Assembly (NCBI GenBank): GCA_947168405.1
Contig: CAMVLU010000001.1
Span: forward strand, 1 to 46,438
Length of the DNA: 46,438 nucleotides
From: an uncultured Clostridia bacterium
Lineage (GTDB): Bacteria; Bacillota_I; Bacilli_A; RF39; UBA660
Direction of reading: 5' to 3'
Position 1 is the stretch's first letter. Each line of letters opens with the position of its first letter. The notes below the pieces were generated by a model. That model was not told the DNA's origin. It did not search any database and saw only the letters and a list, made by a program, of their open reading frames with translations. Positions 37,478 to 38,205 of the stretch are shown one piece after another. The position numbers and the translations under genes were made by a program.

Positions 37478-37506
37478 TTGTCAAAATTATCAATTTGTGT
37501 TATTAT
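37478..37506 (+). promoter_or_regulatory. Promoter of candidate antisense (antitoxin) RNA, unit 1 (TTGTCA-17-TATTAT)
   Basis: TTGTCA at 37478-37483 and TATTAT at 37501-37506. Confidence 0.6.
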
Positions 37507-37512
37507 GTATAT

Positions 37513-37630
37513 AGATGAAGGAAACTTCATAAAATAAAAAAGGATGTATCTAAATTTCAGAGGTTAGGTGCACTCCATGGTTAATGAAAATGCAGACTAA
37601 TACTCAAACTGAGTGTTAATCTGCATTGTT
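37513..37630 (+). ncRNA. Candidate antitoxin sRNA, unit 1
   Basis: Runs from the predicted start after the -10, through a 5' hairpin ATGAAG-GAAA-CTTCAT (37515-37530), to the 39-nt hairpin at 37589-37627. It converges on the toxin ORF. No ORF longer than 10 codons. Confidence 0.5.
37589..37627. terminator. Bidirectional hairpin shared by the convergent RNAs, unit 1
   Basis: AATGCAGACTAATACTC-AAAC-TGAGTGTTAATCTGCATT (about 17 bp, one mismatch, one wobble). The minus-strand version is followed by TTTCATT and the plus-strand version by GTTGCT. Confidence 0.65.
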
Positions 37631-37631
37631 G

Positions 37632-37715
37632 CTATCTAAGTTTAAATAGCATGATGATAATTATCATAAGTTGAAAAATTGCAATTGTAAAAAATGCTTT
37701 TTCTCTTCTAGTCAT
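37632..37715 (-). CDS. Candidate type I toxin, 27-aa hydrophobic peptide MTRREKAFFTIAIFQLMIIIIMLFKLR, unit 1 (not in ORF track)
   Basis: My translation of the rc of 37632-37715. AAGGAGG lies 8 nt upstream. The peptide has one 18-residue TM flanked by basic residues. An identical second copy exists. Confidence 0.6.
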   Translation of the reverse strand: MTRREKAFFTIAIFQLMIIIIMLFKLR

Positions 37716-37791
37716 AATATCATCCTCCTTTACAATTTATTATTTTTTATAAAGGAGTGCAAACTAACACTAATTAAATACATCCAAGATT

Positions 37792-37820
37792 ATTGTACCA
37801 AATTGAATAATAAGAGACAA
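37792..37820 (-). promoter_or_regulatory. Promoter of the toxin mRNA, unit 1 (TTGTCT-17-TACAAT)
   Basis: TTGTCT is the rc of 37815-37820 and TACAAT the rc of 37792-37797. The predicted start lies at the GGATG end of the right inverted-repeat block (about 37785). Confidence 0.55.
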
Positions 37821-37858
37821 TGGTTTTATGTAATATTTTTGCAAAATTAATACAAAGA

Positions 37859-37887
37859 TTGATTTTTAATATAAATTATGTTATTAT
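37859..37887 (+). promoter_or_regulatory. Promoter of candidate antisense RNA, unit 2 (TTGATT-17-TATTAT)
   Basis: TTGATT at 37859-37864 and TATTAT at 37882-37887. Confidence 0.6.
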
Positions 37888-37893
37888 GTATAC

Positions 37894-38017
37894 AGATGAA
37901 GGAAACTTCATAAAATAAACAAAGGATGTATCTAATATTCTGTCGAGTTAGATGCACTCCGTATAATTTATACGAATGCAGACTAATACTCAAGACCGAG
38001 TGTTAATCTGCATTTTA
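37894..38017 (+). ncRNA. Candidate antitoxin sRNA, unit 2
   Basis: Same layout as unit 1. The terminator hairpin at 37975-38014 is followed by TTTT. Confidence 0.5.
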
Positions 38018-38101
38018 CTATCTAAGTTTAAATAGCATGATGATAATTATCATAAGTTGAAAAATTGCAATTGTAAAAAATGCTTTTTCTCTTCTAGTCA
38101 T
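38018..38101 (-). CDS. Candidate type I toxin, identical 27-aa peptide, unit 2 (not in ORF track)
   Basis: The rc of 38018-38101 is identical in nucleotide sequence to the unit 1 ORF, with the same SD and anti-SD. Confidence 0.6.
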   Translation of the reverse strand: MTRREKAFFTIAIFQLMIIIIMLFKLR

Positions 38102-38176
38102 AATATCATCCTCCTTTACAATTTATTATTTTTTATAAAGGAGTGCAAACTAACACTATTAAATACATCCAATATA

Positions 38177-38205
38177 ATTGTATCACAATAAATTTAATGA
38201 TACAA
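38177..38205 (-). promoter_or_regulatory. Promoter of the toxin mRNA, unit 2 (TTGTAT-17-TACAAT)
   Basis: TTGTAT is the rc of 38200-38205 and TACAAT the rc of 38177-38182. GGATG lies 6 nt downstream. Confidence 0.55.

Follow-up and report, generated by a model that had tools for sequence, protein, structure and literature searches.

Two tandem units between a methyltransferase gene and pth

The window analyzed in this study is a stretch of 46,438 nt (contig CAMVLU010000001.1, positions 1 to 46,438, assembly GCA_947168405.1) deposited as an uncultured Clostridia bacterium. A gap of 766 bp separates a methyltransferase open reading frame (ORF), ending at 37467, from pth, starting at 38234. Gene callers skip the short ORFs in this gap, so that the locus is annotated as empty. 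A first reading of the letters alone, referred to as the original prediction, had placed two tandem copies of a candidate, apparently undescribed type I toxin-antitoxin module here. Each ~385-bp copy was proposed to carry a 27-aa ORF on the minus strand behind the Shine-Dalgarno (SD) sequence AAGGAGG and to express a convergent non-coding RNA from the plus strand, both strands having promoters of their own.

The arrangement and its parts were borne out. Positions 37478-38233 consist of two direct (head-to-tail) units whose starts are 381-387 bp apart. They share 89% identity overall and 98% over the 149 nt around ORF and leader (37629-37777 versus 38015-38163). An nhmmer profile of the unit detects exactly two copies in the window. 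Likewise, the pattern anti-SD...SD...ATG-MTxREK occurs twice, versus 0.00 expected occurrences in 100 shuffles. Each unit holds one ORF behind its SD sequence, and the two encoded peptides are identical, a stretch of about 18 hydrophobic residues being flanked by basic N- and C-termini (Table 1).

Relatives were collected in three ways. A degenerate pattern applied to one genome per GTDB species yielded 29 loci, 13 of which are family members. From metagenome contigs, a second pattern scan contributed a subtype whose leader is longer, and a relaxed ORF filter retrieved further diverged tandem copies, subtype D, that had been selected by no search pattern. In total, the family comprises 36 distinct units with 24 distinct ORFs and four RNA subtypes, A to D, all of them in gut metagenome-assembled genomes (MAGs) with a GC content of 25-31%. 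The 13 members from the genome scan originate from goat, deer, rabbit and human gut and are labelled Bacilli, Tenericutes or Firmicutes, with the exception of L023 (CAZZCM010000017.1), which bears a Muribaculaceae label. Because this contig has 29% GC and carries a typical module of the Bacilli family, it is probably mis-binned.

As the original prediction had proposed to check, the module occurs at other loci and in other copy numbers in related genomes, with varying sites and one to three units per array. Neighbouring genes vary between genomes (pheST, ffh, proS, an RNase J-like gene, feoB), one MAG carries two separate loci (L013 and L033), and at L030 the module resides at the methyltransferase-pth site, as in the window. 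Arrays of two to three units are found in eight loci (L016, L017, L022, L029, L040, L045, L052, and L060). Contigs with an identical Pth protein carry different contents in the same gap, namely A-A (window), A-B (L002/L003), a single A (L006), or B next to pth (L001, L004, and L005; in L001 it is the only unit). The B-type unit of L002 and L003 is 72% identical to the A type and encodes MTNREKSQFIIIILLFILVFIILFK. The methyltransferase-pth gap is a strain-level hotspot. In L001-L003, three extra small genes (a DUF4177 gene and genes of 99 aa and 91 aa) follow the methyltransferase gene upstream of the units.

The 24 distinct ORFs encode 25-28 aa and show codon periodicity. Over codons 6-25, the entropy amounts to 0.83, 0.41, and 0.93 bits at codon positions 1, 2, and 3, respectively; the second position is T in 336 of 360 core codons, and 339 of the 360 core positions are hydrophobic. 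Stops interrupt the alternative frames in 24/24 and 20/24 sequences. We read this codon pattern as selection for a hydrophobic helix and not for an RNA or DNA motif. An ORF interrupted in relatives while the nucleotide sequence stays conserved had been named beforehand as counter-evidence. Instead, the ORF is intact in every unit found, including the subtype-D copies, and the nhmmer profile of the unit revealed no ORF-less copy in any locus or in the window. With fewer than 60 aa, a hydrophobic composition, a predicted transmembrane helix and evidence of coding selection, these ORFs have the properties by which type I toxins are recognized.

All four promoters proposed for the window are present, and their positions are conserved in the family. 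A toxin promoter with a score of at least 8 of 12 is present in 36/36 units, and with few exceptions 6-7 nt separate the end of its -10 box from a conserved GGAT (GGAU in the RNA). For the convergent sRNA (small RNA) promoter, this score and the position are kept in 34/36 units and the TG-extended -10 box in 32/36, at a fixed distance to the first conserved stem. The -35 box of the second toxin promoter has only 3/6 matches, and promoter-like hexamers, common in DNA of 24% GC, were found 19 times versus 10.3 expected.

Two palindromes adjoin these promoters. The first, TTGTATCA-N12-TGATACAA at 38177-38206, has the sequence of a TG-extended sigma-A-type promoter on both strands: the minus strand would drive toxin mRNA 2, the plus strand pth (ATG at 38234). 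As both promoters occupy the same ~29 bp, binding of RNA polymerase to them should be mutually exclusive. The same palindrome adjoins pth in L001-L006. The second, at 37829-37854, has 17-nt arms (TGTAATATTTTTGCAAA / TTTGCAAAATTAATACA) and lies between the promoters of toxin 1 and sRNA 2; it is also located between the units in L002 and L004 and could act as an operator or insulator.

Database searches were performed with both peptide and nucleotide sequences. HMM searches with up to seven peptide variants against Pfam, NCBIfam, and PHROGs (E up to 10) gave no match, and a search of Rfam with 37000-38600 (E up to 10) returned only chance matches of eukaryotic miRNAs and snoRNAs to the hairpin. 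Hence, the peptide, which had not been recognized as Fst, TxpA, BsrG, Hok, or AapA, matches no entry of these libraries. For Hok and AapA, the peptide lacks a Pfam match of any kind; for TxpA/RatA, there is no match in Pfam, NCBIfam, or Rfam. Fst likewise yields no Pfam or NCBIfam match of the peptide in libraries not separately checked for an Fst model, and BsrG/SR4 none in Pfam, NCBIfam, or Rfam, whose holdings of BsrG or SR4 models were not checked. Blastn of the unit gave no match to plasmids and only 35-51-nt AT-rich chance matches to phages. Tblastn was negative for one peptide variant against plasmids and for another against phage records (not checked for SPbeta). Among viral contigs, 20 pattern matches included no family member, and six 7-residue peptide N-termini do not occur in the full text of papers.

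Table 1. Features predicted for the two units, in window coordinates.
Feature	Position	Strand	Remarks
sRNA 1 promoter	37478..37506	+	TTGTCA-17-TATTAT, TG-extended -10
Predicted antisense sRNA 1	37513..37640	+	~115-128 nt; folding free energy (ΔG) -39, z -6.75
Parts of sRNA 1	37515-37530; 37542-37576; 37589-37627	+	Stem-loop 1 (SL1); stem-loop 2 (SL2), preceded by an A-rich linker; terminator hairpin
Predicted toxin mRNA 1, full length	37528..37785	-	~255 nt, closed by 5'-3' helix
3' arm of long-range helix and conserved U-run	37528..37576	-	GGAGUGCACCUAAC...UUAGAUACAUCC
Toxin-like ORF 1	37632..37715	-	27 aa, MTRREKAFFTIAIFQLMIIIIMLFKLR
SD-sequestering hairpin, mRNA 1	37722..37760	-	Anti-SD CUCCUUUA (37750-37757) pairs UAAAGGAG(G)
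SD sequence, unit 1	37724..37730	-	AAGGAGG, 8 nt upstream of ATG
5' arm of long-range 5'-3' helix	37758..37785	-	mRNA 5' end GGAUGUAUUUAAUUAGUGUUAGUUUGCAC; predicted transcription start ~37785
Toxin mRNA 1 promoter	37792..37820	-	TTGTCT-17-TACAAT, TG-extended
sRNA 2 promoter	37859..37887	+	TTGATT-17-TATTAT, TG-extended
Predicted antisense sRNA 2	37894..38026	+	ΔG -42.2, z -7.39
Predicted toxin mRNA 2	37909..38170	-	5' end GGAUGU at 38170
Toxin-like ORF 2	38018..38101	-	27-aa peptide identical to that of ORF 1
SD sequence, unit 2	38110..38116	-	AAGGAGG, 8 nt upstream of ATG
Toxin mRNA 2 promoter	38177..38205	-	TTGTAT-17-TACAAT, TG-extended -10

Structures predicted for the mRNA and the antisense sRNA

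The predicted mRNA 1 has a minimum free energy of -81.5 kcal/mol (z = -9.52 versus dinucleotide shuffles). An RNAalifold consensus of 33 mRNAs reveals three elements: a helix linking the 5' end to the 3' end, in the following called the clamp, a hairpin in which an anti-SD element pairs with the SD sequence, and a hairpin after the stop codon. Overall, 97.1% of the alignment cells are paired, with compensatory changes in 22/31 pairs. The two segments of the clamp contribute 97.0% and 97.6% paired cells with compensatory changes in 14/18 pairs, the anti-SD:SD hairpin 93% and 3/6 pairs (the subtype-D change GGUGG/CCC is counted here), and the hairpin after the stop codon 100% and 5/7 pairs. On four of five covariation measures, 0/500 shuffles reach the observed value; on the fifth, further pair types, 51/500 do. 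Slid controls for these helices have 30-42% of their cells paired.

On the opposite strand, the consensus contains the central stem-loop SL2 and the terminator hairpin. Together they have 98.7% of cells paired and compensatory changes in 10/18 pairs; the covariation score exceeds that of every shuffle, and in slid controls 29-40% of cells are paired. In the region of SL1 (37515-37541 and its equivalent in all units), the sequence varies and a hairpin is kept. The A-rich linker CAUAAAAUAAAAAA, the complement of the mRNA U-run, is nearly invariant across units.

The types of base pairs indicate the strand on which these helices form. In the mRNA clamp, G·U cells outnumber A·C cells by 77 to 4, and in SL2 of the sRNA by 33 to 0; the complement of SL2 in the mRNA is also less stable than SL2 itself (mean ΔG -8.0 versus -10.9 kcal/mol). 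Thus, pairing of each helix is restricted to the strand for which transcription is predicted. This speaks against explaining the covariation solely by an inverted repeat at the DNA level or by gene conversion. Together with the conserved promoter, the covariation and the strand-specific G·U pairs support the ~115-nt plus-strand non-coding RNA of the original prediction. Judged by its sequence, this would be an antisense RNA gene in its own right, with a dedicated promoter and complementarity to the toxin mRNA, as characteristic of type I systems.

The predicted sRNA fully complements the final ~100 nt of the mRNA, i.e., the hairpin after the stop codon and the 3' arm of the clamp, which is the exact complement of SL2 plus linker. 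Since this 3' arm in turn pairs with the mRNA 5' end, SL2 is not complementary to the mRNA leader but resembles it. Outside the overlap, duplex predictions between the sRNA and the SD sequence or the 5' untranslated region (UTR) reached z values of only -1.1 to -2.8 versus shuffles. Pairing in trans, as in SprA1AS or RNAII, was therefore dropped as a candidate, its duplexes being no better than those of shuffles.

A 17-bp hairpin located directly after the ORF stop had been described as lying between the two RNAs. Its presence and position stand: it is composed of 8+9 bp with a 1x1 internal loop and begins a few nt 3' of the stop in mRNA sense. On the sRNA strand, it is followed by UUUUU in most subtypes. 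However, it is probably not a simple boundary. On the mRNA strand, every unit has its conserved U-run (UUUUUUAUUUUAU) only about 55 nt past this first hairpin, behind a second hairpin and next to the 3' arm of the clamp, so that toxin mRNA and sRNA probably overlap by ~100 nt. The region of 37528 is the probable 3' end of a long mRNA form; in unit 1, a shorter mRNA of ~200 nt ending after the hairpin and its UUUU is possible.

The accessibility of the SD sequence was assessed by partition function calculations. It is mostly paired in all states, with an unpaired probability of 0.03-0.3. When the 3' region is blocked, as it would be by the sRNA, the SD sequence becomes less accessible in most members, e.g., from 0.107 to 0.02 in unit 1 of the window and from 0.14 to 0.04 in L017. 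A tightening of the SD helix upon 3' blocking is retained as a weak effect in these predictions. An on/off switch in which a 3' GGAG captures the anti-SD and frees the SD sequence in the full-length mRNA was rejected because SD accessibility is low in every state.

Subtypes differ in these structures. Hairpins and clamps of subtypes B and D are distinct (CACACUAAC versus CAUCUGAU), and subtype D combines an SD sequence GGUGG with a matching anti-SD CCC. All eight tandem arrays mix subtypes B and D. The sequence differences suggest that diversification keeps each sRNA specific for its own mRNA.

Relation to known systems and proposed mode of action

Among known systems, bsrG/SR4 of B. subtilis is the closest. 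In the bsrG mRNA, helix P1 is formed by nt 1-35 and nt 232-262, and a 4-bp helix contains the SD sequence; structure probing revealed that upon binding of SR4, nt 1-33 become single-stranded and the SD helix extends from 4 to 8 bp, and SR4 both promotes decay of the bsrG mRNA and blocks its translation (PMC3834814). Like bsrG/SR4 (and bsrE/SR5), the units have convergent genes and an antisense RNA overlapping the 3' part of the toxin mRNA. As in bsrG/SR4, the mRNA is closed by a 5'-3' helix with the SD sequence in a helix, the antitoxin complements the 3' arm, and the product is a small hydrophobic peptide, here predicted to reside in the membrane. This is a shared architecture and no membership of that family, as neither peptide nor RNA has sequence similarity. 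Furthermore, the peptides have 25-28 aa versus 38 aa in BsrG and the sRNA ~120 nt versus 183 nt in SR4. In our units, the 3' arm of the clamp lies directly before the U-run without a separate terminator stem-loop after it, the sRNA barely reaches the ORF, and the SD hairpin has 8-11 bp already without the sRNA. Our modules occur in uncultured gut Bacilli and are unlinked to prophages.

Other systems share fewer features. A convergent, 3'-overlapping antisense RNA also characterizes txpA/RatA and yonT/SR6 of B. subtilis, with duplex formation and subsequent RNase III-dependent decay as the expected common mode of action (PMC3531473; PMC8594479); however, their toxins have 58-59 aa, their antisense RNAs overlap the ORF, and there is no homology. 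The fst/RNAII (par of pAD1) and SprA1/SprA1AS systems resemble our units in convergent transcription across a shared hairpin and in a hydrophobic toxin of ~30 aa, and their functional pairing takes place outside the overlap via direct repeats at the 5' ends (PMC8594479). In contrast to the direct repeats of fst/RNAII (DRa/DRb), the repeats here are inverted, and pairing outside the overlap is not significant. Thus, of the layouts to which the original prediction had likened the locus, txpA/RatA and bsrG/SR4 are appropriate, while fst/RNAII is less apt. In general, an antisense RNA on the 3' side with partial overlap is the Gram-positive layout in T1TAdb (PMC8594479), which matches the layout found here.

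Altogether, we consider it probable that each unit is a chromosomal type I toxin-antitoxin-like module of a previously undescribed family. This agrees with the original prediction and is supported by ORF conservation, promoters, covariation, copy variation and the lack of a family match. In kind, the candidate family is a new sequence family of a known design, which combines a 3'-overlapping antisense RNA with a clamped mRNA. Toxicity of the peptide we infer only from its form and from the behaviour of the locus.

The following course of events is conceivable; transcription, the exact RNA ends, the involvement of RNases, toxicity and neutralization are its inferred elements. The minus strand would give rise to an mRNA of ~200-255 nt for a single-pass membrane peptide of 27 aa. 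Two structures would close this mRNA, the local hairpin between the SD sequence and the anti-SD CUCCUUUA and a 5'-3' helix of ~20-25 bp before the U-run. From its TG-extended promoter, the plus strand would constitutively produce an sRNA of ~120 nt, which would pair with the 3' ~100 nt of the mRNA, beginning via loop contacts by analogy with bsrG/SR4. As the sRNA complements the 3' arm of the clamp, and this arm pairs with the mRNA 5' end, binding must displace the 5' arm, so that the 5' end would become single-stranded and a long RNA duplex would form. RNase III and 5'-dependent RNases would then break down the mRNA; the SD hairpin would meanwhile remain closed or become tighter. After loss of the sRNA, the stable, clamped mRNA would persist and eventually be translated, and the peptide would damage the membrane.

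More tentatively, and with clearly less confidence than we place in the module itself, the units might operate as a self-contained three-strand RNA switch. Its antitoxin stem-loop would mimic the mRNA 5' end and displace the clamp strand instead of masking the ribosome binding site, the clamp would double as terminator, and orthogonal subtypes A-D would coexist in tandem. If so, uncultured gut Bacilli with reduced genomes would possess a lineage-specific addiction or defence system that shares a palindromic promoter with the essential gene pth.

Several points weigh against the interpretation as a type I module. The aligned sequences are related, so that the shuffle controls overstate significance, and gene conversion between inverted repeats in the DNA could account for part of the covariation between 5' UTR and 3' region. 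That M1, T2, R4, and E5 are invariant in the peptides was imposed by the search patterns and is no independent evidence, and with 25-28 aa the peptides are at the short end of the range of type I toxins. With -2.3 kcal/mol, the local hairpin that would terminate the long mRNA form of unit 1 is weak, and the U-tract of the subtype A sRNA is poor (CAUUGUUGCU); the RNA ends in the window, which are predicted and not mapped, are therefore uncertain. The predicted drop in SD accessibility upon 3' blocking is small and not universal. Finally, expression, ribosome occupancy, and toxicity of the members are predictions.

The strongest competing explanation is a harmless small membrane protein, e.g., a modulator of a transporter or membrane complex, whose synthesis is tuned by a cis-antisense RNA. 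The evidence from ORF, sRNA, and RNA structure fits this explanation equally well, toxicity being a matter of deduction. Yet we regard it as unlikely, as it does not account for the tandem duplication, for RNA subtypes that should not cross-pair, and for insertion at unrelated intergenic sites. Number and type of units vary among strains with identical Pth, which is the behaviour of a selfish type I toxin-antitoxin system rather than of a housekeeping gene with a fixed partner. Moreover, it is typically toxic products that are silenced as heavily and redundantly as is predicted here through SD hairpin, clamp, and antisense RNA (PMC3834814; PMC6733600).

Alternatively, the same module might be regulated in the manner of hok/sok and aapA/IsoA, where a 5'-3' interaction keeps the primary transcript inert until the 3' end is processed (PMC6733600). 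In that case, neither ribosomes nor antisense RNA would act on the full-length clamped mRNA, and translation would require trimming of its 3' end. Our units share with these families a conserved 5'-3' long-distance interaction that closes the mRNA, multicopy module-specific loci, and the sequestration of the SD sequence by CU-rich anti-SD elements (PMC6733600). However, hok/sok and aapA/IsoA are Gram-negative families activated by 3' trimming, with an antisense RNA on the 5' side of or inside the mRNA, whereas the antisense gene here lies 3' and is convergent, unlike Sok and IsoA (PMC8594479). Since its target is the 3' end of the mRNA, trimming would remove the binding site of the antitoxin, and the main anti-SD is a local element 5' of the SD sequence and not derived from the 3' end. 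We therefore judge this mode of regulation improbable. A leader of the mok type, as present in hok, was not observed either, no leader ORF being conserved in the family units.

That the units are non-coding repeats, either similar to miniature inverted-repeat transposable elements with terminal inverted repeats or stacked terminators, with ORF and hexamers as by-products of AT-rich DNA, would fit the DNA inverted repeat GGATGTAT...GCACTCC flanking the ORF, the occurrence at many intergenic sites and the frequency of promoter-like hexamers at 24% GC, but it is highly improbable: the reading was rejected on the codon periodicity, with T at position 2 and an intact ORF in every unit, and on the G·U-rich helices that pair on one strand only, which a DNA-level repeat would not yield, and besides, the promoters keep their register relative to the RNA 5' ends and the inverted repeats are located inside the promoters instead of at the unit ends.

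Significance and genomic surroundings

Type I toxin-antitoxin systems are hard to detect by homology, and their known range is narrow. They are stated to be known only from Proteobacteria, Firmicutes, and Tenericutes (PMC12390103). The units described here represent a sequence family without match in the protein, RNA, plasmid, phage, and viral-contig collections searched, in hosts known only as MAGs. The principle is already known; the sequence family is new, and its hosts are unexplored. Our 36 natural variants provide unusually clear covariation for the 5'-3' clamp, the SD trap, and the antisense stem-loop, and suggest that Firmicutes make general use of the bsrG/SR4 design, for which the experimental work was done in one species. 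The peptides are among the shortest candidate membrane toxins, and the four subtypes may be mutually orthogonal and could serve as RNA regulatory parts.

With regard to its surroundings, the window lies near the replication origin, with dnaA at 20785-22146 as well as dnaN, gyrB, and gyrA among its genes, and the modules are situated about 16 kb from dnaA. The orientation of the ORFs in the window switches at ~20.5 kb, according to which the toxin ORFs are head-on to replication and the sRNAs co-directional with it. Besides the methyltransferase gene and pth, the window contains the signal recognition particle RNA (30162-30259), dnaX, a PSP1/RicT gene, and mfd, and a T-box leader (44473-44658) is located upstream of metG.

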